Virus record (IMG/VR): IMGVR_UViG_3300049173_000141
Coordinates: 1-30,518 of that record
Direction: 5' to 3' (one strand)
Source of the DNA: a virus
Lineage: Duplodnaviria > Caudoviricetes
DNA: 30,518 nucleotides
The notes beneath the pieces are model-generated. The model was given only the letters and a program-made list of their open reading frames with translations, ran no database searches and had not been told where the DNA came from. A program made the translations under genes and the position numbers. This document shows positions 13,550-30,518 of this stretch, in pieces. Each line of letters starts with the position of its first letter. Position 1 is the first letter of the stretch.

Positions 13550-14411
13550 ATTCGATTTCCTGCCCGAACGGGCCTTCCAGCCACGCCCGGGCGGCGGCAT
13601 GACCGCTGAGGGCGGCGGGGGCGGCGGCGGCAACTCCGCAGCACAGAATGCCGCGACCATGCTGCAGGTGCAGGCGAATCAGGAGCAGCTGGCCTGGGCG
13701 AAGCAGGTGTACGGCGAAGAGGCGCCGACGCGCGCGGCGGCGCAAGAGGTCGGGCTGCAGGTCTCGCAGGCGCAGCTCCAGCAGATGCGCCAGCAGACCC
13801 AAATGGCCCGCCAGGCGCAGGATGACTACAACACCATCTACCGGCCGATCGAGCAGGGGCTCGCGGCCGAGGCGCAGGCCTATGACACGCCGGAGCGCCG
13901 AGCAGCAGCGTCCGCCGCTGCCGTGGCCGATGTCGAGCGCAATCTCGCGTCGCAGCGCGGCGCCACGACCCGCGAAATGGAGCGATCGGGCGTAGACCCG
14001 TCGAGCGGCAAGATGGCCGACATGCAGGCTTCGCTCGACCTGAATGCTGCGAAGCTGAAGGCGGGCGCTGGCAACGCCGCATCGAAGGCGGTGGAGACCA
14101 TCGGCTACGGGCGCCGCATGGACGCTGCCAGCCTCGGCCGCGGCATCGCGTCCAGCCAGGGCACCAGTGCCGCCCTTGCTTCGCAGTTCGGCAGCGCTGC
14201 CATGGGCACGCAGGGGCAGGTACTCGCGGCTGGCCAAGCCGGCAACGCTGGCATGCAGGCCGCTTACGGGACTGCCGTCCAGGGATACGGTGCAGCTGCG
14301 AATGGCTTCGGCAATTTGGCGGCTGGTTCCCGCGCGGATTCGGCTGCTCGTTCCTCGAACGCGGCGGCGGGAGTTGGGGCGGTGGCAACTGTCGCGGCGG
14401 CGGTGATTTGA
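13527..14411 (+). CDS. Small ejection (internal virion) protein, gp7-like, with N-terminal leader
   Basis: Leader ending MTAE-GGGGGGG, Ala/Gln/Gly-rich helical body, hydrophobic C-terminus. Confidence 0.7.
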   Translation: MSRWHRTEFDFLPERAFQPRPGGGMTAEGGGGGGGNSAAQNAATMLQVQANQEQLAWAKQVYGEEAPTRAAAQEVGLQVSQAQLQQMRQQTQMARQAQDDYNTIYRPIEQGLAAEAQAYDTPERRAAASAAAVADVERNLASQRGATTREMERSGVDPSSGKMADMQASLDLNAAKLKAGAGNAASKAVETIGYGRRMDAASLGRGIASSQGTSAALASQFGSAAMGTQGQVLAAGQAGNAGMQAAYGTAVQGYGAAANGFGNLAAGSRADSAARSSNAAAGVGAVATVAAAVI

Positions 14412-15835
14412 TGAGCCTCATGAACATGGCTGCTGTGGAAGCGGCGATGCCCACAGTTATCGCCCAGGGCATCCGCGTCTTCAACGGTGCACTATTCGGG
14501 CGCGATGAAGCCGAGCACATCGACGTTCTGCTGCATCTTTTGGACCCGGTCGAGGACGCGCTTGTGATCGACGCCGGGTGCGGCGTGGGTGAGATGGCGC
14601 GGCTCATGAAAGAGCGGCGACCGGATCTGAGCTTTCTGCTGGTGAACACGAGCGAGCTCCAACTCGCCCTTTGCCCGCCCGAATTCGACCGACTGCGCGC
14701 AGACTACGAGCGCCTCGAGGGCGTTCCCGATCACTGTGCCGATGCGATCGTCTTCAGCTACTCACTTTGCCACGCGGAGACATGGCAAGCAGCTCTGAAA
14801 GAGGCGCGCCGTGTTCTGAAGCCGGGCGGCACGCTGCTGATCAACGACATGGCAGCTCTCTGGAGCGAATCCATGGAAGACCTGGAGCGCGTGCTCGGCG
14901 CCCGCGCGTGGGCGCCCGAGGTGGTGGAACGCTGGTTCCGCGACTCTGGACTCAAGATGGAGTCGGCCTTGGCGCCGGATGTCGGGGTGGATCGGCTTCG
15001 CGGATTGCTCGAGCTCGACGGTGTGGACACCGCCCTCCTTGACGGCATCGTTGCGACCGTTTGGCGGCTCACCGCCTTGGACGATGACGCTGCCCTGTGG
15101 CACCGGCATGAGGGCGCGATCGCATTTCAGTTTTCGGGCGGCCGAGACAGCACTGCTGCTCTCTACCTGCTGCGCGACCGATGGCCGCTCATGCGGGTTT
15201 ACCACGTCGACACGGGCGACCAGTTCCCGGAAACGCGCGCCGTGGTTGAGCGTGTGGAGGCTGACCTTCTGGCGGCCGGAGTGGTGATGGAGCGCATCGT
15301 GACCAATGTGCAAGCCCAGCGAGAGCGCGACGGCGTGCCCACAGACTTGATTCCCGTCGACAACAACGGCCTCGGCCTGTACGTGTCTGCCGGGGCACCT
15401 GCCTTGGTTGGCCGTTACGACTGTTGTGCCCGGGCCTTGATGAACCCACTTCACGAAACCATGCGGAGAGACGGAATTTCGCTCATCGTGCGTGGCCAGC
15501 GCGACGACGAGTACCAGCGCCCCCCGCTGAGGGATGGGGACGCCATGGATGGGTTCTCTTTTCACTACCCGATTCAAGCCTGGACTTCGGCAGACGTACA
15601 GCAGTACCTGGAAGACAACCAGCTCCCGGTGGCTCCTTTCTATCGCGCCGGGATGCGTCGGGCGCCTGAGTGTCTCCATTGCACGGCTTGGTGGGATGAG
15701 GGGCGATCGCGCTACATGCGCGAGCACCACCCGAAAGAGCATGCCGTCGTGATGCGCAGCATGTCGGAGATTCGAAGTGCCATCAATCGCCAGTACGCCT
15801 GGCTTGTCGAAGAAATGGAGGCCGGAAATGGCTGA
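14411..15835 (+). CDS. SAM methyltransferase fused to a PAPS/APS-reductase-like (PP-loop) domain
   Basis: TGATG coupling. VIDAGCGVG and EARRVLKPGG (class I MTase); FSGGRDS, VDTGDQFPET, DCC, RGQRDDE, YPIQAWT, CLHC (PAPS reductase family). Confidence 0.85.
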   Translation: MSLMNMAAVEAAMPTVIAQGIRVFNGALFGRDEAEHIDVLLHLLDPVEDALVIDAGCGVGEMARLMKERRPDLSFLLVNTSELQLALCPPEFDRLRADYERLEGVPDHCADAIVFSYSLCHAETWQAALKEARRVLKPGGTLLINDMAALWSESMEDLERVLGARAWAPEVVERWFRDSGLKMESALAPDVGVDRLRGLLELDGVDTALLDGIVATVWRLTALDDDAALWHRHEGAIAFQFSGGRDSTAALYLLRDRWPLMRVYHVDTGDQFPETRAVVERVEADLLAAGVVMERIVTNVQAQRERDGVPTDLIPVDNNGLGLYVSAGAPALVGRYDCCARALMNPLHETMRRDGISLIVRGQRDDEYQRPPLRDGDAMDGFSFHYPIQAWTSADVQQYLEDNQLPVAPFYRAGMRRAPECLHCTAWWDEGRSRYMREHHPKEHAVVMRSMSEIRSAINRQYAWLVEEMEAGNG

Positions 15836-17108
15836 AGGTTGGGGACACGTACTCGCAGCCGGCGTGAACGGGTACTTTCGCGGCGTGGGCCTCGCTCGCG
15901 AGCAAAAGGACGCTGAAGAAGAACAAGCCTACAGGTCTGAGGTACGCGCGGCCCAGCGCGCGAAGATCGCGGAGGAGCGCTCGCTAAGACAGGACCTCAC
16001 TGCAGCAGCTCAGCCGGTTGCGGTGGTCGAAGGCTCCAACGGTGCAGTCATGCCGGCCACGATGGATGCTCGCGACATCGGGCAGCCGGGAGAGCCACCG
16101 CTCGATCCCGCGTCTGGCTCCTTTCGCGTGGGAGCTCAGACCTATGTCGATCGCTCGGCGGCCGAAGCAGCCGCCGCACAGCAGAACAATCCAATGAACA
16201 TCGCGGCCAGGCAGGCTGCGATCTACAACCAGCGCGGCATGCCCACCGAGGCAGCGGTCCTGGAGAACAAGCAGGCGGCGCTGGCAAAGCAGGCCGCCGA
16301 GATGAAAGAGAAGGGGCTGATGACCGGAATGGCGCGTTTCCGCGCTGGCGACAGGGCCGGTACCGTGAAGGCGCTCAAGGACTCGGGCTTGTTCCAGATC
16401 GCCGACGAAAACGTGACGATGACCCCAAGGAAGATGGAAATCCCTGGGCTGGGAGAGATCCAGACTTACGACCTCACTTTCAACGCGAGGAACCCGGACG
16501 GTACGACGGAGCCGGTTACTGTCAACTCACATCAAGCGTCGATGGCGCTGATGCCGTACGAGAAAGCGCTCGAGTTGCAGCGAAAAGGGGTCAAAGACGA
16601 ATCGGCGATGGAAGTTCAGGCACAGAAGCTGAATCTGGCCCAGCAGCGCCTTGAAATGCAGGGCACGCTCAATGAGGCGCGCATCGCTCGCATCCAGGCA
16701 GGGGGAGGTGGCCGAAACGGGGCAGGGGGCAAGGAAGACCGGGAGTACCGCCTGCAGCTCCAGAACATGACCAGTCAGCTCAACCGCGAGATTCGCGAGG
16801 CCGATGCCGCAATCAAGACGCTGAAAGACGATGTCACCGTCAGGCCCAACGATCCTCGCTTGGTCGAGCTGGCGAGCCAGCGCAGCCAGCTCGCCCAGCG
16901 CCGTTCCGCGCTCAACGACGAGTTCGTGAGCTTGGCCGAGGCGAAGCGGCCCGGCAACGAGAACCTCGCACAGCAGCGAAAGCCGAAAGCCTCCGCCGGT
17001 GCCGGCGGTGGCAAGCCTCCCGTGATCAAGAGCAAAGCCGAGTACGACCAATTGCCCAGCGGCGCGCTGTATGTCGCCCCGAACGGCGAAACCATGCGGA
17101 AGAAGTAG
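15828..17108 (+). CDS. Ejection (internal virion) protein
   Basis: ATG 15828 with SD GGAGG. Amphipathic N-terminus, coiled coils, C-terminal AEYDQLPSGALYVAPNG motif. Confidence 0.7.
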   Translation: MAEGWGHVLAAGVNGYFRGVGLAREQKDAEEEQAYRSEVRAAQRAKIAEERSLRQDLTAAAQPVAVVEGSNGAVMPATMDARDIGQPGEPPLDPASGSFRVGAQTYVDRSAAEAAAAQQNNPMNIAARQAAIYNQRGMPTEAAVLENKQAALAKQAAEMKEKGLMTGMARFRAGDRAGTVKALKDSGLFQIADENVTMTPRKMEIPGLGEIQTYDLTFNARNPDGTTEPVTVNSHQASMALMPYEKALELQRKGVKDESAMEVQAQKLNLAQQRLEMQGTLNEARIARIQAGGGGRNGAGGKEDREYRLQLQNMTSQLNREIREADAAIKTLKDDVTVRPNDPRLVELASQRSQLAQRRSALNDEFVSLAEAKRPGNENLAQQRKPKASAGAGGGKPPVIKSKAEYDQLPSGALYVAPNGETMRKK

Positions 17109-17111
17109 GCA

Positions 17112-20100
17112 ATGGCGAAAGAATTCTGGGAAGCGGACGAGAAGGTTTCGTCGTCGGACGGTGGCGAGTTCTGGAAGGGCGACGAGCCGGCGGCCAAGCA
17201 GGCGCTGCCGGCGGACGTGAAGCCATCCGAAGCGGGCGGCGGCCGCGGCTCGGTGAACCCTCCCATCCTTGCGGCGCGCCGTGCCGCGCCTGCCGATGGC
17301 GATGTCGATCTGTCCCGGCCGGCCGGCGTGCTCGCCCGGGACATCAAGCGCGGACCCGCACCGGACAAGCGATCACTGCTCGAGCGGAGTGTTGAAGGCG
17401 CAACCGAAGGGGAGCGCGACCGCCTCATCAGGCAGGAGCGTCGCGCGAACTGGGAGCAAGACCAAATCGAGGCCGGCAGACCCATCGCCACAGGCACCAC
17501 GCGCAAGCGGGAAGACACCGACGCCAACCGTGGCGCGGAGTACGCCACCGGCCCGATCGGCTCCACCGCAGCCGGCCGTGTGCTTGGCAAGGTGGCCACC
17601 GGGGTCGGCGAGGGTCTGGGCGGCATCGTGGAGGCCGTTGGCGACGTTTCGGGGATTGAGCCCTTGGCTCGCGCCGGGAAGGCCACGGCTGAGGGGGCGC
17701 AGGCGTTCAGCAAGGGCATGGGCAAGATCGGCGACATCGCCGGCTTCGGCCCGCGCAGCCCTGTGCCTTATCTCGCGGCACAGGCCGAAGGTGCCGCGTC
17801 TTCGCTCGGGCAGAGCGCCGTGCTTGCTGCTGGTGTCGGCGCGCGCAGCGTCATTGCCACGCAGGCGGCGCTTCAGGCCGGCCAGTCGTATAACGAAGCG
17901 CGGCAAGCCGGCATGAGCCCGGCCGCGGCGTTGGCCCGCGCTGTGCCGCAGGGAGCGTTCGAAGCCATTGGCGAGAAATTCAGCGGCCTTGACCGCGTGG
18001 CCGGCGCCATGGGTACGCTGCTCAAAAAGGGGGCCGGCGACGCCGCGAAGCGCACGGCCGCCGACGTGCTGGTGCGCGCCGGCATCAAGGAAATCCCGGG
18101 CGAAGTGCTCACCTATCTGGGGCAGACCGGAACGGACCTTGTACCCGGCATCGGCTTGAACCCGGACCTGACGATGGAGCAATTCCTCGACGGGCTGCGC
18201 GACACCGTGGTGCAGGCCGGGATGATGGGCAGCGCGGTGGGCGGCGGGGGCATGATCGCGCGCCGCAACGCACCGGCAGCTGCCGGCCTTCCGCCTGCAC
18301 AGCCCGCCCAGGCGCCCGCGACGCCTGAGGCTTCGCCGGCGCCAGAGCATGCGGTGGTTCCGGCGCCAGCCGTGGCGCCGGAAGCAGTTGTTCCGCTGGC
18401 GCCAGTCGCACCCGAGCCGCCGCCGGGCCCGCTGGCGCGGGCCGCCGCTACGGCATCCATCCTGAGCGATGGCGTGGTCACTGGCGAACGAGATCCATCC
18501 GCTCGGCCGAAGTCGCTGGGCGAGCAGAACGCCGCCATGGCCGAGATTGCCCGTATCGAGGCCGAGCAGGACGCCGAAGGCGAACTCACGGCCGCCATGC
18601 TGGCCGACGAGCCGGCGCCGGACGGCCAGGCCGCCACCACCCCGAAGGAGCCCAGCAATGAAACTTCGAAGCCTGAAGCGCAAGAAGATGTCAGCCCTGC
18701 AGCAGGGCGGAGCACGGATCGAGCGGACGGATCGGATGCTCGCAGCGGCGATGCACTCCAACGAGAGCCTGCGCAATCGGTGGCGACCAGCGTGCCTGGA
18801 TCTGCGGAGGCCGTCGCGCCTGACGCGGCTGGTGCAGATGGTGTAGCCGATGGCGAGGTCGCAACCCCTGGCCAGGCTGATAGCGCTGGAAAACCTGCGC
18901 CAGCGCCGCGCCCAGCGGCGCCAGCAGGCGCAAGCAAAGCCGCAGCCGCTACCACGACCTACAAGAGCGTAGAGGAAGCGGCCGACTTCGTGCGCCAGCA
19001 GCGCGCGCGTGGCACCAACATCACTGCCGTGCCGTACACGAACGAGGCCGGGGCGATCGTCCTCGCCCTAAAGGGCACGCCGGAGTACGAGCGCGGGCTC
19101 GGCCAGCGCCAGCAGCGCGTGCAGTTGAAGGCCCGCGAGGCCGCGGGCATTCGCGACGGCGACATCCTGACGAAGTCGGGCGGCGCCTTCAAGGCGAAGG
19201 TCGCGGCGATCAACGCGCAGAAGGCGGCCGGCGCGGGCCATGCCGTGGTGCCCGTCAAGGGCGGGTTTGTGGTGCGGAAGGAGGCAACCGATGTCAGCGC
19301 AAACAACGATGTTTCCGGAGTGGCTGCAACAGCCCCTCGAGGTAGGAGTGATAACGCCGGTGGAGGCGTGGCAGTTGAATTGGGAGGAGCAGGTGCACCC
19401 GGACGAGCCGCAGTACCCGCCGCACCTGTGGCTGCTGGCGAGCAAGGTGCAGTTCTTTCACCTGCCAACCGACCCGACGCTCCACTGAGCCCGCGCGACG
19501 ATAAGCTGGCTGTCAGGATCGACGTTGCCGCCAACGAAGCCGCCACCAGTCCGCTCAACGACAAGCCCGAGCCGACTGATGCCCAGAAAAAGGCCGGCAA
19601 CTACGCCATGGGCCACTTGTCGGGCAAGGACACGCAGGGTATCGACATCACCATCGAGAACCCGAAGGGCAGCGAGCGGCGCGGCACCTCGCCGGACGGC
19701 ACTGCGTGGGCGAACAAGATGGATGCGCACTACGGTTATGCGAAGCGCAGCCAGGCCGCCGATGGTGACCACGTCGACATGTTCGTCGGTCCGGCCGCCG
19801 ATCGCGCACCGACCGTGTGGGTCATCGACCAAGTCAACGCCGATGGCACCTACGACGAAGCGAAGGCCATGTTCGGTTTCATGAACAAGGCGGCCGCGCT
19901 CAAGGCCTACAAGAACAGTTACTCGAAGGATTGGAAGGTCGGGCCGGTAACCGCCATGACCGTTGCCGAGTTCAAGGCTGGACTCGAAAGCGGCCGCTTT
20001 ATGGCGCCGCTGGATGCGAGCTTGGCCACGCCCGCCGCTCCAGCGCCAGCGGGCACGCCTAAGCGCGACCTGAAGGCTGAAGGCCAAGAAGCCCTCCCGT

Positions 20101-23100
20101 TCAGTCGCAGCGCGGCTGAAGAGGGCGACACCGTCGCCAAAACACAGGCGACGGTCGACGCGATCCTGTCGAAGTGGTCGAATGCGCCGAGCGTGGTGGT
20201 CGCGCGCAACATGAACGATCCGGCGGTGCCGGCCGCGGTGCGCCAGCACAACGAGGGCCAACGGGCCCAAGGCGCCGAGGGCGAGCCCGAAGGCTTTTTC
20301 TACGCGGGCAAGGTCTACCTGCTGGCGGACCAGCTCGGCTCGCCGCACGATGTGGTGCGGGTGCTGTTCCATGAAGCGCTGGGGCATTACGGGCTCCGCG
20401 GCGCGTTCGGCGCCGAACTCAGGCCGATCCTGAAGCAGTTGGCAGGCCTGCGCCGCGCGGAGGTCGAGGCTAAGGCTCGCGCCTATGGCCTCGACGTGGC
20501 CAACGAGCAGCAGCGCCTCATGGCTGCAGAAGAAGTGTTGGCCGAGATGGCAGAGAAGACGCCGAGCATCGGGTTCGTGCGACGCGCGATCGCTGCCATC
20601 CGTTCGTGGCTGCGAGCGAACGTCCCGGGCTTCGAGAAGCTTGACCTTTCGGATGCCGAGATTGTGCGCAACTATCTGCAGCCCGCGCGTGGATGGGTCG
20701 AGCGCGGCCGCCACCAGGTGGAAGTCCCCGCCTCGGCGCAACAGCCCGCATTCAGCTTGGGCGAGAGCACGCTCCGCGAATTGAGCAAGGCCGATGACCT
20801 GTTCGCTCTGCCGAAGTCGGAGAAGACCACGGTCGAGGGAATCGCACAGGACAACGACCCCGCGATCAATGTTCGAGCGCTCAAGCCCTACGGTGGGCGT
20901 TCGGACTATTTGCTGACGCTGCCCGACGGGAACACCGCGCGGATCATGGTGCGCGAGCCAAACCCCTACGGGCCCAGCCTCTATGGCTACGACCTGACCG
21001 ACGGCGCCATGGGTGGCGAGGTCACGGAGCGGCCGGGCGAGAACCCCGAGGATGTGCCGCCGACCGGTGACGTCTGGATCGACGTTTCGCTTCTGGATCG
21101 CGGCGGCAAGGGCTACGGAGCGATGGTCTACAACATCGCCGCGACTTACGCACACAACACGGGACGAATCTTCATTGGTGATCCGGCGGGGCTGAGCAAC
21201 CACGCGCTGCGCCGCCGGCTCGAGCAGATGATCTCCAGTGCGCTGAAGTTCGGCACCACCGCTCACCTCGCGCCGCACCCGGACCAGGTGCGCGGCGGCG
21301 GTGGCGTGCCCGGGTTGCGTTGGGTTTATGGCGATCACGTCGACAACGTGGAACGCATGATTGCTGCTTCGCTCGATGCGTTGGATAATGCGTTCCCCCA
21401 GTCCAAAGTCGTTGCTTTCGACCCCGCCAATGGCACTTTCTTCAGAACCGACACAGGCGCAACCCTGTCCCGAACCCAGCTTGTTCTGGGTCTTGGACGG
21501 TCCCTCGCCGCGGCAAGAAAGGTTCCTGGAAGCCTTCCAGGAAAAGGCGAGGCTGGTTGGCGGACTGTTTCGCGAGCGGCTGTCTTCCGAGCCCTTTCAC
21601 GCGGAGAAGGCGAAGGCCGAAGCGCTTCGAACGGGCGATCCGCTGGCCTATTGGACCGCGATGGGCGAGCAATACTTCGCACCGGTGCCGAGCAGCCTGG
21701 CGAGCGCATCTTCTACAGCCGCACTGCAACGCATCCGGGTCCTGGAAGCCGAGATGACGCGACTGGCCCAGCCCGAGATAGAGCCCGTGGCGGCCTAACT
21801 GGCGCGCCGGCGGCAAAAGCCAGCCCTGCACTTGCGAGCGCCGTCTTTGGCGGCGCTCTCGAATGGACCCGCGACCAGAACGGCAAGCCCGTGAAGGTTT
21901 CGGAGCAGGCCGACAAGTACAAGGCGATCGGCACCGACGAGCGGGGCCAGATGCTCCTGCGCAAGGCTTACATCACGGCCGACCAGCTGAAACGCTGGAA
22001 AGAGTCCAAGCTCGACATATACGAGGGAGCGATCAACAACCGCTTCCGCAAACACTTCGAGTCCCCGGGCATCGTCTGGAAGGATTCTGAGCTCCGGGAA
22101 GTCTTCAAGCTCGACGACGCAGCCGTTGCCGCGTACCGCGAACTGCGGGCTACCGCTGACACCAGCATCGCCCGCCACGCGGTGGCTGACATGCTTCGCT
22201 TGGCAGCCGAAGACGGCCATGCGGTGCGAGACCAGGTGATGGGCGAGCCGCTGGAGGTGGCTTCCGAAACCCTGCGCGACCATTTGCTCGCATTGGCTGC
22301 TGCGAACCCGGAGCGCAACAAGGTGCTCACCGATCGCGCCAACGGTGTGATCGACATTGCCGATAAAGCCAATGAGCACATGGCGGCGGGTTATGTGCCC
22401 GACGACATGAAGGCCGATGCGCGGCCCAGCGAATGGGAGAGTTCGGTTCCTGGATTGGCCGACCGGCTGATCTACGAGTTCCAGGACGGCAAGGTCGATC
22501 TGAAACGCACGCAAGAAGCGATCACCCGTGCCGGCAACGCCATCGATGAGCGCTTCGACGCGCGGCTCGCCGAGACCCTGTATTCGGGTCGGGTGGCCAA
22601 GCGCAGCCAGTCCTTCTTGGAGGTGGAGGCAGCGCCGCTGTTGCGCATGATGGCGCGCATGGGCATTGGCCAGGACGAACTGGGTGACTACCTGCACGCC
22701 CGCGGCGCGCCGGAGCGAAACGCGCAGATTGCCAAGGTGAACCCGGACATGCCCGACGGCGGCGCTGGCTCGAACTCGAAGGGGCTGCTGCTGACCACTG
22801 CTGCGGCGCGGCAGTACATCGCGGATCTGCCGGCGGCGCGGCGCGCCCAGCTTGAGCAGCTGGCCGAGAAGGTCGACGCGATCATCAGCGGCACGCGGCA
22901 GTTGTTGGTGGCCGAAGGCCTCGAGAAGGCCGACACGATCGCGGCGTGGGAGGCGGCATACAAGCACTATGTGCCGATGTTCCGCGAGGATGTGGAGTTC
23001 AGCCGCCTGACGGTCCACAAGCGCGCAACGGGCTCGGAGAAGAAGGCCGTCAACATCCTCTCGCACGTCCTGATGCAGCGGGAGGCCGCAATCACGCGGG

Positions 23101-25181
23101 CCGAGAAGAACCGCGTCAACGTGGCGCTCTACGGTCTCGCGCTCACCAACCCGAACCCGGACTTCTGGGTGACTATCCGGCCGAACTCCGAAGCTGCGAC
23201 GATCCAGCAGGACCTGCAGCGCATGGGCGTTGATCCGCTCGTGGCCGAGGCCGGCATGCAGGGGGTGCCCACGATCCGCACCGTCGACCCGGAGACGGAT
23301 CGCGTGGTGGAGAGGCTGAACCCGATGTACCGCCAGTTACCGGGAGCGATCAGCGTCAAGATCAACGGCGAGCACCGCGTGCTGCTGTTGAATGAAGGCG
23401 ATCCGCGCGCAATGCGCCTGGCTGCGGCCATGAAGGGACAGGATCAGCTGACAGAGATGGACATCTCGGGTTCCATCGTAGGGCGCACCACGCGTTGGCT
23501 CGCCGCGGTCAACACCCAATACAACCCGGTGTTCGGCGTGGTGAACTTCATGCGCGACACCATGGGTGGTGTGGTCAACCTGGGGAGCACTGAACTCCGC
23601 AATGAAAAGACGCGCGTGCTCGCAGGCCTGCCAGGCGCGCTGCGTGGCATTGGCGCCCATATGGCCGGCCGGCCCGATGGCAGCCGTTGGGCGCAACTGT
23701 TTGAGCAATTCCAGATGGACGGCGGGCAAACTGGATTCAGAGAGCTTTTCCGCGATGGCGGTGAGCGAGCTCGCAACATCGAGCAGCAACTCGCGAAGAT
23801 GTCGAAGGCCGGCCGCCTGAACCCGCTGGTGGTGCCGCGCATGATGCTGTCGTTGCTGGACGGCTTCAACACCATCACCGAGAACGCTGTGCGCCTTTCG
23901 GCGTATGCTGCGGCGCTCGACAAGGGCATGAGCCGGCCCGCGGCCGCGCGCCTCGCTCGCGAGCTCACGGTCGACTTCAACCGCAAGGGCAGGGCGACGC
24001 GCGAAGTCGGACCACTTTACGCGTTCTTCAATGCCGCAGTGCAAGGCAACGAGCGCACGCTGCGCGTGCTCCGCGGTCCAACGGGCGCGAAGATCATCGC
24101 TGGCGGCCTCGCACTTGGAGTGATCCAGGCGCTTATGCTGGCCGCTGCCGGTTATGAAGATGACGAGATCCCCGAGTTCGCAAAGGCCCGCGCGTTCATC
24201 ATTCCGCTGTTCGGGCGGGAAAAGAAATACATCAGCATTCCGCTGCCACTCGGCCTGCACGTGCTTCCGAACACCGGTCGTGTGGTGACCGAAATGGTGA
24301 TCGGTGACCACAAGGGGATGGGCAAGAAGGCGTTCGACGCGCTTGGAGAGATCCTGGGCGCATTCAATCCGCTGGGCGGAGGCAATGTCACCACGCTGGA
24401 CGGGTTGCTGCGAACCGCTGCCCCTACCGTAGTTGATCCGTTCATCGAACTCGGCTTCAACAAGAATTTCGTCGGCAACCAGATCGAGCGCGATGCGCGC
24501 GGGGAATCCGACACGCGGCCGGCAGCTGCGCGGGCGCGCGAGAGCACGCAGCGTCAGTTCACCGGGCAGGCCTACATCGGCATCAGCAAGGCAATCAACC
24601 AGCTCACCGGCGGCAGCGACTTCGAGGCTGGGGCGGTCAGCCCGACTCCCGAGCGCCTGCGCTACATCGCCCAGGTGGCCGGTGGCGGCGTCGTGCGAGA
24701 GTTGGAGAAGGTTATCAACTCTTCGGTGGCAGCCAGCCGCGGTGAGAAGGTGCCGGCGAGTTCAGTGCCTGTGGCCGGCCGGTTCTATGGAGAGGTCGAC
24801 GGCGACCTGGTGGCACGTAGCCGCTACTACGAGGGCAGCAAGCGCATCGAAGCCCTTGAGGGCAGCCTGCGGGCAGCGAAGAAGGCCGGCGACGGCGCGA
24901 CTGTGGAGCGGCTGCAGCGCACGCGACCCGAGGTCGGTCTCATCAATGCGAACAACCGCGCTCAACAGGCGATTCAGAAGCTGAACAAGCAGGCGGCGCA
25001 GGTGATCGGCGACCGCGAGACGCTGCGGGAAATTGACCAGCGGCGCTTCGAAACCATGCGCGCGCTCAGCGAGGCCATCCGCGACATGGAGCGAGCCCAA
25101 CGCTCGCCAACGCTGGCCGAGCGCCTACGCACGTCAGAACAAGCGACCGCCGGGGGAAGTGTCAATGTGCGCACGCGGTGA
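17112..25181 (+). CDS. Giant polyvalent ejection protein (inorganic-pyrophosphatase-like, MPTase zincin, GNAT-like, LPD38-like)
   Basis: iPPase-like KKAGNY...IENPKGSERRG...YGY...DGDHVDMFVG...YDEAK (~19520-19990). HEALGH at 20370-20387. WIDVS...GKGYGAMVY (~20760-21600). C-terminal ARELTVDFNRKG...LYAFFNA...IPLP (LPD38-like). Confidence 0.85.
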   Translation: MAKEFWEADEKVSSSDGGEFWKGDEPAAKQALPADVKPSEAGGGRGSVNPPILAARRAAPADGDVDLSRPAGVLARDIKRGPAPDKRSLLERSVEGATEGERDRLIRQERRANWEQDQIEAGRPIATGTTRKREDTDANRGAEYATGPIGSTAAGRVLGKVATGVGEGLGGIVEAVGDVSGIEPLARAGKATAEGAQAFSKGMGKIGDIAGFGPRSPVPYLAAQAEGAASSLGQSAVLAAGVGARSVIATQAALQAGQSYNEARQAGMSPAAALARAVPQGAFEAIGEKFSGLDRVAGAMGTLLKKGAGDAAKRTAADVLVRAGIKEIPGEVLTYLGQTGTDLVPGIGLNPDLTMEQFLDGLRDTVVQAGMMGSAVGGGGMIARRNAPAAAGLPPAQPAQAPATPEASPAPEHAVVPAPAVAPEAVVPLAPVAPEPPPGPLARAAATASILSDGVVTGERDPSARPKSLGEQNAAMAEIARIEAEQDAEGELTAAMLADEPAPDGQAATTPKEPSNETSKPEAQEDVSPAAGRSTDRADGSDARSGDALQREPAQSVATSVPGSAEAVAPDAAGADGVADGEVATPGQADSAGKPAPAPRPAAPAGASKAAAATTTYKSVEEAADFVRQQRARGTNITAVPYTNEAGAIVLALKGTPEYERGLGQRQQRVQLKAREAAGIRDGDILTKSGGAFKAKVAAINAQKAAGAGHAVVPVKGGFVVRKEATDVSANNDVSGVAATAPRGRSDNAGGGVAVELGGAGAPGRAAVPAAPVAAGEQGAVLSPANRPDAPLSPRDDKLAVRIDVAANEAATSPLNDKPEPTDAQKKAGNYAMGHLSGKDTQGIDITIENPKGSERRGTSPDGTAWANKMDAHYGYAKRSQAADGDHVDMFVGPAADRAPTVWVIDQVNADGTYDEAKAMFGFMNKAAALKAYKNSYSKDWKVGPVTAMTVAEFKAGLESGRFMAPLDASLATPAAPAPAGTPKRDLKAEGQEALPFSRSAAEEGDTVAKTQATVDAILSKWSNAPSVVVARNMNDPAVPAAVRQHNEGQRAQGAEGEPEGFFYAGKVYLLADQLGSPHDVVRVLFHEALGHYGLRGAFGAELRPILKQLAGLRRAEVEAKARAYGLDVANEQQRLMAAEEVLAEMAEKTPSIGFVRRAIAAIRSWLRANVPGFEKLDLSDAEIVRNYLQPARGWVERGRHQVEVPASAQQPAFSLGESTLRELSKADDLFALPKSEKTTVEGIAQDNDPAINVRALKPYGGRSDYLLTLPDGNTARIMVREPNPYGPSLYGYDLTDGAMGGEVTERPGENPEDVPPTGDVWIDVSLLDRGGKGYGAMVYNIAATYAHNTGRIFIGDPAGLSNHALRRRLEQMISSALKFGTTAHLAPHPDQVRGGGGVPGLRWVYGDHVDNVERMIAASLDALDNAFPQSKVVAFDPANGTFFRTDTGATLSRTQLVLGLGRSLAAARKVPGSLPGKGEAGWRTVSRAAVFRALSRGEGEGRSASNGRSAGLLDRDGRAILRTGAEQPGERIFYSRTATHPGPGSRDDATGPARDRARGGLTGAPAAKASPALASAVFGGALEWTRDQNGKPVKVSEQADKYKAIGTDERGQMLLRKAYITADQLKRWKESKLDIYEGAINNRFRKHFESPGIVWKDSELREVFKLDDAAVAAYRELRATADTSIARHAVADMLRLAAEDGHAVRDQVMGEPLEVASETLRDHLLALAAANPERNKVLTDRANGVIDIADKANEHMAAGYVPDDMKADARPSEWESSVPGLADRLIYEFQDGKVDLKRTQEAITRAGNAIDERFDARLAETLYSGRVAKRSQSFLEVEAAPLLRMMARMGIGQDELGDYLHARGAPERNAQIAKVNPDMPDGGAGSNSKGLLLTTAAARQYIADLPAARRAQLEQLAEKVDAIISGTRQLLVAEGLEKADTIAAWEAAYKHYVPMFREDVEFSRLTVHKRATGSEKKAVNILSHVLMQREAAITRAEKNRVNVALYGLALTNPNPDFWVTIRPNSEAATIQQDLQRMGVDPLVAEAGMQGVPTIRTVDPETDRVVERLNPMYRQLPGAISVKINGEHRVLLLNEGDPRAMRLAAAMKGQDQLTEMDISGSIVGRTTRWLAAVNTQYNPVFGVVNFMRDTMGGVVNLGSTELRNEKTRVLAGLPGALRGIGAHMAGRPDGSRWAQLFEQFQMDGGQTGFRELFRDGGERARNIEQQLAKMSKAGRLNPLVVPRMMLSLLDGFNTITENAVRLSAYAAALDKGMSRPAAARLARELTVDFNRKGRATREVGPLYAFFNAAVQGNERTLRVLRGPTGAKIIAGGLALGVIQALMLAAAGYEDDEIPEFAKARAFIIPLFGREKKYISIPLPLGLHVLPNTGRVVTEMVIGDHKGMGKKAFDALGEILGAFNPLGGGNVTTLDGLLRTAAPTVVDPFIELGFNKNFVGNQIERDARGESDTRPAAARARESTQRQFTGQAYIGISKAINQLTGGSDFEAGAVSPTPERLRYIAQVAGGGVVRELEKVINSSVAASRGEKVPASSVPVAGRFYGEVDGDLVARSRYYEGSKRIEALEGSLRAAKKAGDGATVERLQRTRPEVGLINANNRAQQAIQKLNKQAAQVIGDRETLREIDQRRFETMRALSEAIRDMERAQRSPTLAERLRTSEQATAGGSVNVRTR
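18658..18846 (+). CDS. Candidate overprinted ORF A (+1 frame in the giant gene), 62 aa, basic
   Basis: AAGGAG at 18645-18650, 7 nt before ATG. Host frame here is a low-complexity linker with many A/T-ending codons. Confidence 0.45.
   Translation: MKLRSLKRKKMSALQQGGARIERTDRMLAAAMHSNESLRNRWRPACLDLRRPSRLTRLVQMV
19291..19488 (+). CDS. Candidate overprinted ORF B (+1 frame), 65 aa, Trp-rich
   Basis: AAGGAGG at 19278-19284, 6 nt before ATG. Globular-looking product MSAQTTMFPEWLQQPLEVGVITPVEAWQL; host frame is a Gly/Ala linker. Confidence 0.6.
   Translation: MSAQTTMFPEWLQQPLEVGVITPVEAWQLNWEEQVHPDEPQYPPHLWLLASKVQFFHLPTDPTLH
21361..21389 (+). promoter_or_regulatory. Candidate internal sigma70 promoter
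   Basis: TTGCTG (21361-66), 17 bp, GATAAT (21384-89), just upstream of overprinted ORF C. Confidence 0.45.
21430..21798 (+). CDS. Candidate overprinted ORF C (+1 frame), about 122 aa, helical
   Basis: Protein-like SPRQERFLEAFQEKARLVGGLF...DPLAYWTAMGEQYF...LQRIRVLEAEM. Host-frame codon bias weakens here. Start uncertain (frame open from 21361; no SD). Confidence 0.55.
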   Translation: MALSSEPTQAQPCPEPSLFWVLDGPSPRQERFLEAFQEKARLVGGLFRERLSSEPFHAEKAKAEALRTGDPLAYWTAMGEQYFAPVPSSLASASSTAALQRIRVLEAEMTRLAQPEIEPVAA

Positions 25182-26907: not shown

Positions 26908-27464
26908 CCGCCAAAACGAAGCTGGTCGGCACCATCATCGTCGCCGGCGCCACTCTCGTTGCCGGCAGTCCATTCCTGATGGACTTCCTGCAGAAGTGGG
27001 AGAGCGGCAAAAGCCGCGTGCTGGTGGTCTACCCCGACAAGCTCGCCGGCGGGCTGCCCACCGTCTGCAATGGCTTGACCAAGCACGTCACTTCGACGCC
27101 CATCGTCGTGGGTGAACGCTGGAGCGAGGCGAAGTGCGAGACCGAGGAGCGGGCAGCTGTGACCCGGATGCAGCAGCACCTGGCGCCGTGCTTCAAGCGC
27201 GCGCCGAACCAGATGGTCTGGGACATGGCCAGCAGCCACGCATGGAATCTCGGGCCGGCCGCGACTTGCGGCAGCGGCGCGATGGCAGCGTGGAACCGCG
27301 GGCAGTGGGCCCTGGGCTGCCAGCGCATCGCACGCGGCGATGACGGCACGCTCGTGTGGTCGTACACCTGCAAGACGGTGGCTGGCCAGCGACAGTGCAC
27401 ATTCGTTCAGGGCTTGGCCAACCGCCGTGCCGATGAAGCTGCGACGTGCGGCGGGGCGCTGTGA
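26904..27464 (+). CDS. SAR endolysin, GH24 lysozyme
   Basis: N-terminal Gly/Ala-rich hydrophobic SAR segment; WESG...YPDKLAGGLPTVCNG catalytic E-D-T; FVQGLANRR. Confidence 0.88.
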   Translation: MTAKTKLVGTIIVAGATLVAGSPFLMDFLQKWESGKSRVLVVYPDKLAGGLPTVCNGLTKHVTSTPIVVGERWSEAKCETEERAAVTRMQQHLAPCFKRAPNQMVWDMASSHAWNLGPAATCGSGAMAAWNRGQWALGCQRIARGDDGTLVWSYTCKTVAGQRQCTFVQGLANRRADEAATCGGAL

Positions 27465-28009
27465 TGTTGCCCGATCTCAAGACCCCATTGCTTTGGGTCC
27501 TCGGGCTTGCGCTCGTGGGCGCGCTGGCCACGGCCGGCATCGAGCGCACGCGGGCAGCTGGTGCTCGTGCCGATGCCGCGACCGCGCGCAAGGATCTCGC
27601 CGACTACCGTGCTTCACAGGCCGAATCCGGCCGTATGGCCGAGCGTGCCGCGCGTACCCAAGAACAGATCTGGCGCGCTCGCGTCGATGGAGTGATTCAA
27701 GATGGTCAACAGAAAATTGCCCAGTACCGCGCTGATGCTGATCGCGCTGGTGCTGCTGAACGCCGGATGCGCGCACGACTCAACGCCTTCCGTGCCGCCG
27801 TCCGTGCAGCCAGCGCAGCGCCCAGCACTCCCAGCGGAAGCCCGCCAGCCGAAGCCGCCCTCGATCTGCTCACCGAGCTGCTCGGCGGGAGTGGAGCGGC
27901 TCTTCGGGAATTGGGGCGATTCGCTGACGCTGCCCACGGCGCCGGCACAGTCTGTGAGCGGGCCTGGGACGCCGGCGCACAAGCAGCGAACGGCGAGCCG
28001 GGGCGATGA
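27464..28009 (+). CDS. Rz-like inner-membrane spanin
   Basis: TGATG coupling. N-terminal TM helix, coiled coil, C-terminal FADAAHGAGTVCERAWD. Confidence 0.8.
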   Translation: MLPDLKTPLLWVLGLALVGALATAGIERTRAAGARADAATARKDLADYRASQAESGRMAERAARTQEQIWRARVDGVIQDGQQKIAQYRADADRAGAAERRMRARLNAFRAAVRAASAAPSTPSGSPPAEAALDLLTELLGGSGAALRELGRFADAAHGAGTVCERAWDAGAQAANGEPGR

Positions 28010-28022
28010 ATATGTGAAATAG
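27702..28022 (+). CDS. Rz1-like outer-membrane lipoprotein spanin (overlapping Rz)
   Basis: SD GGAG at 27689-92. Signal peptide with lipobox-like LNAG-C; Pro-rich; +1 frame of Rz. Confidence 0.8.
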   Translation: MVNRKLPSTALMLIALVLLNAGCAHDSTPSVPPSVQPAQRPALPAEARQPKPPSICSPSCSAGVERLFGNWGDSLTLPTAPAQSVSGPGTPAHKQRTASRGDEYVK

Positions 28023-30236: not shown

Positions 30237-30518
30237 TCAGTGCAAGCCGGGCTTGGGGTCCGGTGCCGGCCCTTCGGATGGCTCCGCTTCCATCTCTGGA
30301 TGCTCGTAGCTCAGCGTCGCGAACGCCACGAGGGCTGACTCGCGCGGCGGGCGATCACGATTCAACGGGTAGAGGGTCGCGGCAAAGCCTGCGAGCCATT
30401 CATGGTCGACCATCCCTTCGCACAGCTCGTGGAACTCTCTCGAGAATTCGAGCCACCACGCTTCTTGATCTGTCAGGACGACGCCAGCGATAACGATGGG
30501 TTTGGCCGGCTTCCACAT
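30237..30518 (-). CDS. Hypothetical protein (ATG at the window edge)
   Basis: 93 aa, normal composition, convergent with SRAP. May extend beyond the window. Confidence 0.55.
   Translation of the reverse strand: MWKPAKPIVIAGVVLTDQEAWWLEFSREFHELCEGMVDHEWLAGFAATLYPLNRDRPPRESALVAFATLSYEHPEMEAEPSEGPAPDPKPGLH

Follow-up and report, generated by a model that had tools for sequence, protein, structure and literature searches.

ORF B, a 65-amino-acid ORF with four Trp residues, is almost certainly a real protein-coding gene, to judge from its codon-position and conservation patterns, and it lies wholly inside a giant phage gene (positions 17112 to 25181, plus strand). The window, that is, the whole stretch of 30,518 nucleotides analysed, is a provirus record with a podovirus-like structural module. 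ORF B occupies 19291 to 19488 on the plus strand in the +1 frame of the giant gene, begins with an ATG at 19291 and ends with a TGA at 19486 to 19488; it is thus a complete ORF within a longer ORF of the same strand and another frame, as embedded genes are. Its Shine-Dalgarno sequence (SD), AAGGAGG at 19278 to 19284 (plus strand), precedes the ATG by 6 nt (CAACCG) and overlies the giant gene's codons for Lys-Glu-Ala. A sequence-only reading had pointed to this SD, the 6-nt spacer, the ATG, the 65 residues with four Trp and two segments that it quoted, all of which are present in the sequence. It had called the SD perfect; that holds for the window, but the closest relative has AAGGA, and the SD is not strictly conserved. 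Among the first 21 family members found, 19 have an SD match of at least 5 nt. No sigma-70 promoter was found at 16800 to 20500, and no sigma-54-like site upstream of ORF B stood above background.

The giant gene encodes a phage polyvalent protein of 2,689 amino acids with InPase, LPD37 and LPD38 domains (Pfam; PHROGs). The InPase domain covers 19578 to 19979 on the plus strand (residues 823 to 956; PF18823, E 3e-44) and served as the normal-frame control, while LPD37 is at residues 1318 to 1497 and LPD38 at residues 2350 to 2554 (by Pfam, PF18853 / PF18857). The gene is very large, combines InPase with LPD domains and stands within a phage structural module, as phage polyvalent genes do. As assigned by Pfam and PHROGs, the module runs from major head, adaptor, tail fibre and internal virion genes to the giant gene, its final large gene, and then to the lysis cassette; the giant gene product is likely to be an internal virion or ejection protein. 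Over ORF B the giant frame had been described as a featureless linker, and it is indeed rich in Gly, Ala, Pro and Val and has no Pfam match there. Two further features of the neighbourhood were observed. A methyltransferase is fused to a PAPS-reductase domain within the virion gene module (14408 to 15835, plus strand), and an Rz-like spanin gene (27446 to 28022, plus strand) is overlapped by a lipoprotein-like ORF (27702 to 28022), which is the known Rz/Rz1 arrangement.

An SD followed by an ATG in the +1 frame is by itself weak evidence for a gene, because shuffled codons yield many such ORFs. Across 213 giant genes, 190 SD-ATG ORFs of at least 40 amino acids were observed in the +1 frame and 3 in the +2 frame, and 30 codon shuffles of the same genes gave 133 ± 10 in the +1 frame (maximum 151). 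Other long ORFs from the same loci held 24 SD-ATG ORFs versus 19 ± 4 in shuffles. What raises ORF B above chance is the shift in codon-position signal together with a conserved family.

L164, the closest relative for which DNA was available, was the sole relative used in the codon-position test of ORF B. The two sequences differ at 20 bases, distributed 2/2/16 over nested codon positions 1/2/3, and only 2 of the 20 fall at the third codon position of the giant frame. In the InPase control the differences from L164 were 8/6/42 by position in the giant frame, 42 of 56 at the third; the reversal between ORF B and InPase is significant (Fisher p 4e-7). Counted by changed codons, the nested frame has 12 synonymous and 5 non-synonymous changes, and the giant frame 3 and 16. 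The regions of the giant gene flanking ORF B behave normally in the same comparison (upstream 7/6/28, downstream 10/9/46). Third positions in ORF B are 83% GC when counted in its own frame and 37% when counted in the giant frame; for the giant gene as a whole the figure is 78%. In a 12-member Aeromonas-type set, whose rows are not independent, variable columns were 32/25/44, a weaker shift in the same direction, and amino-acid identity was 74% in the nested versus 60% in the giant frame. Over 33 distinct sequences, 19 of 65 residues are invariant in the nested frame versus 3 of 64 in the giant frame. These comparisons bear out the earlier proposal that the information resides in the nested frame; purifying selection appears from them to act on the frame of ORF B, and the linker of the giant protein behaves as the passenger frame. 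De novo birth from the giant frame and insertion into the linker with read-through fit the data equally.

ORF B had no family match in Pfam, PHROGs, NCBIfam or PADLOC, and a protein database search with it returned one protein (85% identity). Its best match in a PDB sequence search had E 0.14, tblastn against annotated phages gave only E 8, and neither ORF B nor a free-standing member had a usable match in the ESM Atlas. A +1 ORF 42% identical to ORF B, with its own SD, was carried by locus L001. Loci were fetched through the InPase domain (best 80 of 402 in genomes, best 80 of at least 565 in viral contigs and best 80 of at least 174 in metagenomes), and members were found by an iterated profile over all six frames of the 227 distinct InPase loci. 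All 21 members so found are in the +1 frame inside the giant ORF, start with ATG, end with His and a stop, and sit 24 to 942 nt upstream of InPase. With one nested protein as query, 44 viral loci were obtained, 44 of 44 intact, SD-led (GAGG or GGAG), starting with ATG and ending in His; 43 of them lie in a giant-frame ORF of at least 1,000 codons. A profile search of the protein database gave 121 proteins, and 115 of the 120 among the matches listed end in His; most of the named homologs are Aeromonas hypothetical proteins. The cultured phage phiARM81mr has an unannotated family member inside p69. By sequence similarity, then, the family spans phages of beta- and gamma-proteobacterial hosts as well as bacterial chromosomes. 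Screening of 27 members against PADLOC and PHROG gave no convincing match (best E 0.02 and 0.01), and a class-wide sample gave one match in 401 genomes at E 0.001, a partial one. Two candidates were left out of the family: a match in Halomonas QHHSV-1, antisense to an annotated gene and at E 2, and the final ORF of the window (30237 to 30518, minus strand; 93 amino acids), which resembles the family's second helix in one motif and ends in Leu-His but scored only 4.9 bits with the profile.

The sequence-only reading had placed ORF B immediately before the pyrophosphatase-like domain. In the window this is right, since the InPase match starts about 90 nt past the ORF B stop, but the position is not obligatory. 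The first 21 members were sampled through InPase, so that for them the link with InPase is circular. Family membership extends to BA3_0004 of Thalassomonas phage BA3 (HMM E 1e-16), which lies in the +1 frame within BA3_0002, a gene with LPD38 and a methylase domain and without InPase. The giant gene at L268 likewise carries a family gene without InPase. Within the gene for a giant protein of 3,234 amino acids (RadC, ART-PolyVal, LPD38; no InPase), the nested member is 41% identical to ORF B and also ends TDPTLH. Among the 44 viral loci, 11 have no InPase in the fetched downstream giant frame, and the flanking domains of the giant proteins vary between members. We consider it probable that the family is independent of InPase. 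BA3 has a second annotated nested CDS, BA3_0003 (L245:5036-5380, minus strand), also +1 and with a TTG start; it does not belong to the ORF B family and may be a shadow ORF.

A search for stand-alone homologs, as had been suggested, found 23 free-standing copies. In whole-genome searches, matches occurred in 4 of 401 genomes of a family sample, 9 of 401 of an order sample and 28 of 46 genomes from the genus to which G458 belongs, which we infer from named homologs to be Aeromonas. The first 14 loci inspected comprised 8 nested +1 copies (in frames of at least 750 codons), 1 in a 200-codon remnant and 5 free-standing copies; a further 20, fetched from 42 matches in the genus and picked for shorter length or weak score, comprised 18 free-standing and 2 nested copies. 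Twenty of the 23 free-standing copies are orthologs that share a single site on the chromosome, next to a divergent ycfJ-like gene (visible in 19, the remaining contig stopping short), two others lie upstream of thrS and one is in G402. No giant gene is near the conserved free-standing copies. They have the same length and start as the nested copies, 22 of 23 end in His, and their variation by codon position is 23/16/51, a normal third-position pattern. On a tree of 29 sequences the label nested or free-standing needs two changes, the free-standing copies fall within nested diversity, and the chromosomal clade is sister to nested phage copies of the same genus (96/86); this topology, drawn from short proteins with a midpoint root only, suggests that the chromosomal copies were captured from phage. 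With a free-standing member as query, nothing was found in plasmids or viral contigs, and no LexA box was found before five free-standing copies.

Some further observations concern the chromosomal loci. L257 (G540:C5, about 1403700-1403940) is the intact member in the 200-codon remnant and lies near transposase-like ORFs; the remnant looks like what is left of a decayed giant gene, and the locus is possibly an intermediate of capture by the bacterial host. A GG-N10-GC motif resembling a sigma-54 promoter stands 105 to 212 nt upstream of the free-standing gene (L259-L261, L263, L271-L286). It occurs in 20 of 20 orthologs despite variable spacing, with a background of 55 in 1,000, though the pattern was set after four had been seen and the rows are related. 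Similar DNA encodes a Gly-Lys-Pro-Phe-Ala motif of the giant protein upstream of several nested copies, and blastn gave no wider similarity.

Three helices were predicted for ORF B (residues 10 to 18, 23 to 35 and 44 to 57; AlphaFold pLDDT 81.6), and three also for a free-standing member (pLDDT 83.6). The features conserved in the family are a hydrophobic core, Ala26, Pro43 and the tail. Both models had the same top BFVD match, A8HNW3 (110 amino acids; versus ORF B, TMq 0.76, rmsd 1.9, E 0.008), which from its length and from tblastn is probably BA3_0004. Foldseek against the PDB had no match at E 0.001, and VIA-align none at Z of at least 5, the best being 4.1 (rmsd 3.0, 51 aligned) and 4.9 (rmsd 4.3, 60 aligned). 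These searches with predicted models show neither a known nor a new fold. The GVIT helical hairpin calls SHOCT or MshEN motifs to mind, a likeness that Pfam did not support.

ORF B ends in Thr-Leu-His followed by the stop (19477 to 19488, plus strand), and the family consensus T-x-His is a putative Lon-type degron. After dereplication at below 60% identity, His is the last residue in 15 of 17 members versus a 2.8% baseline, and Thr is at position −3 in 11 of 17. Likely members without a terminal His are P0230, L252, L253 and L290. Among nested ORFs generally, 21 His endings were observed versus 2.7 expected; this excess is uninformative on other nested families because it stems wholly from the ORF B family and two borderline members. 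Apart from the terminal His, the family conserves no potential metal ligand. Terminal His has been reported as the main determinant of one class of Lon degron, with the two preceding residues contributing, and one tested substrate ends RVTLH (PMC11986505). None of the 17 members matches the strict consensus x-[LI]-[LIV]-H; the penultimate residue is hydrophobic in 8 of 17 and Arg, Lys or Gln in many. Substrates ending TLH and TVH in PMC11986505 also depart from the strict consensus. The pocket for such tails is described for LarA, a small substrate and activator of Lon in which a helix and a short His-ending tail bind the Lon N-domain (PMC10665427, PMC11882793), and PMC11882793 predicts undiscovered LarA-like proteins outside alpha-proteobacteria. 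The pocket Arg appears conserved in 14 Lon sequences of a family guessed, from the nearest named InPase relatives, to include the bacterial host. By this analogy, recognition of the ORF B tail by host Lon is evenly balanced between yes and no.

Other nested ORFs were observed in the window and elsewhere. ORF A (18658 to 18846, plus strand) encodes 62 residues, is basic, lies in the +1 frame with AAGGAG before its ATG and is unrelated to ORF B in sequence; a third, basic +1 ORF of 40 residues (18850 to 18972, plus strand) starts 3 nt past the ORF A stop and is possibly coupled to it. Both are intact in L164, with no other homolog among the fetched loci, and both show shifted substitutions versus L164 by position in the giant frame (ORF A, 12/9/6; 40-residue ORF, 8/3/6). 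Where LPD37 ends, the +1 frame is open at about 21480 to 21798 (plus strand) and its translation looks like a folded helical protein, but no SD-ATG leads it and the loci searched hold no homolog. Giant polyvalent genes also contain further families of conserved +1 ORFs led by an SD; they form 19 clusters with at least two members each, and some look like shadows. Examples are L119:7556-7858, L134:7712-8023 and L046:8498-8728; L008:4580-4945 and L129:8393-8767; L006:6845-7123; L028:7334-7537; L061:5645-5848; L025:4676-4822; and L153:5630-5776. None of the other nested families tested matched a Pfam family at the cut-off, and a likeness of one of them to TnpV was unconfirmed by Pfam. L075 (4985-5572) and L188 contain a 195-residue +1 ORF inside the giant ORF, just before InPase, that by eye resembles an HNH homing endonuclease; the sole Pfam match was a weak one to HTH.

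Could ORF B be a by-product of the giant frame, or a part of its product? Codon usage in the giant gene can turn Lys-Glu into AAGGAG, and Asp or Asn followed by G into ATG, in the +1 frame, and the shuffles confirm that SD-ATG ORFs are common by chance. A shadow ORF arising in this way is nevertheless contradicted by the reversed codon-position signal (p 4e-7), by the way the nested frame is conserved across phages of beta- and gamma-proteobacterial hosts as the giant frame diverges, by the His endings and by the normal codon pattern of the free-standing orthologs, and we regard it as scarcely credible. Frameshifting stimulated by an SD exists in prfB and dnaX, and in the window no stop interrupts the +1 frame over the 40 codons before the ATG, as would suit a shortened giant protein that gained ORF B as its tail by +1 frameshifting with the SD as stimulator. 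This is very improbable. A stop closes the nested frame no more than 7 codons before the ATG in 13 of 21 members, L164 included, which favours independent initiation; moreover, not one of the 21 or of the 44 members has lost the ATG, and the free-standing copies share length and start.

The remaining alternatives accept an independent protein and differ on its role. If the protein served the giant protein or its InPase domain as a dedicated chaperone, packaging aid or inhibitor, co-encoded for timing and stoichiometry, this would account for nesting in giant virion genes at every phage-type locus examined, for the position upstream of InPase in all 21 first-found members and for an IVP-D-like protein as the product of the enclosing gene in BA3. 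The InPase link is circular, however; 206 of 227 InPase loci gave no member at E <0.02, 11 of 44 loci have no InPase downstream, and the gene occurs in giant genes lacking InPase, among differing flanking domains and, conserved, in chromosomal copies away from giant genes. We think such a role unlikely. An accessory protein whose T-x-His tail has a use other than Lon recognition (fitting a partner's pocket, binding a metal, being read by a different protease), acting for instance in counter-defence or superinfection exclusion, has better prospects but is still a minority reading. The gene-level evidence applies to it equally, the middle residue of T-x-His is variable and often basic, unlike the published Lon consensus, and polyvalent proteins are themselves proposed for phage-host conflict (PMC5512222). 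It has to contend with the lack of any other conserved metal ligand, with the PADLOC and PHROG screens of the 27 members, and with the kind of signal that Lon reads, a free C-terminal His that follows an unstructured tail.

Our preferred reading, offered tentatively and at a little short of an even chance, is that ORF B is a short-lived, Lon-recognised accessory regulator with a host-side target. ORF B would be translated by internal initiation at its own SD on the late structural transcript, and the giant protein would read through the same bases as a tolerant Gly/Ala/Pro spacer, so that the linker would work as cargo space for an accessory gene. The predicted three-helix protein would then be handed to host Lon through its T-x-His tail and, as a short-lived regulator, would act on a host target rather than on the adjoining pyrophosphatase domain. 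A bolder version, in our view speculative and rather unlikely, is that linkers of giant ejection-protein genes form a hidden cargo hold for small genes that act on the host. ORF B would then found a family of Lon modulators carried by phages, working as LarA-like activators or as decoys that dock on the Lon N-domain by their terminal His; bacteria would have taken such genes into the chromosome at least twice, in one case under what may be a sigma-54 promoter.

Because gene callers drop small ORFs that lie within giant ones, the family has gone largely unseen, and neither Pfam nor PHROG nor NCBIfam has a model for it. A knockout or knockdown of a giant virion gene may disrupt nested genes as well; thanks to the free-standing chromosomal copies, function can be tested with the giant gene left intact. 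If Lon does recognise the His tail, the family would be one timed by, or acting on, the main protease of the host.

Among known Lon clients, ORF B resembles the substrates SulA, Smg, Y2287 and Y2853, as well as LarA, in its small size, its hydrophobic last helix and the short unstructured tail that closes with a nearly invariant His, and it ends TLH as Y2287 does. A point of difference is that T-x-H, the tail of the family, does not fit the strict x-[LI]-[LIV]-H consensus. LarA (DUF1150) has a beta-sheet core and no relation to ORF B in sequence or fold, and DUF1150 gave no Pfam match for 15 members at E up to 1. By analogy, ORF B may work like LarA and the Lon substrates without being a LarA homolog; only a likeness in working is claimed, because there is no LarA homology and the strict degron test failed. 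The giant gene, with InPase, LPD37 and LPD38, encodes a protein of the kind described as polyvalent, and proposed to act in phage-host conflict, by Iyer et al. (2017, PMC5512222), and resembles the extended T7 IVP-D family of Hardies et al. (PMC4819975), in which BA3_0002 is classed as a T7 IVP-D homolog. In a literature search mainly of openly available papers, and in term searches of the main texts of PMC5512222, PMC4819975 and PMC11879866, we came across no account of genes nested within polyvalent or IVP-D genes. The nearest annotated counterpart is BA3_0004 (ABV74289.1), recorded as a hypothetical CDS with no function or family, which shares with ORF B the family, the +1 nesting in a giant LPD38 gene and the terminal His; it differs in being annotated from an upstream start (110 amino acids, of which the last 64 are family-like) and in lying in a gene without InPase. 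Embedded genes are familiar in phages, as with lambda Rz1 in Rz and phiX174 B in A and E in D, and ORF B is like these in forming a whole gene on the same strand, in another frame and behind a ribosome-binding site of its own. Each of those pairs is fixed, and Rz and Rz1 are binding partners, whereas the ORF B family is found among unrelated flanking domains, with or without InPase, and also free-standing. What sets the family apart from such precedents is this movement between domain contexts, together with the chromosomal copies.
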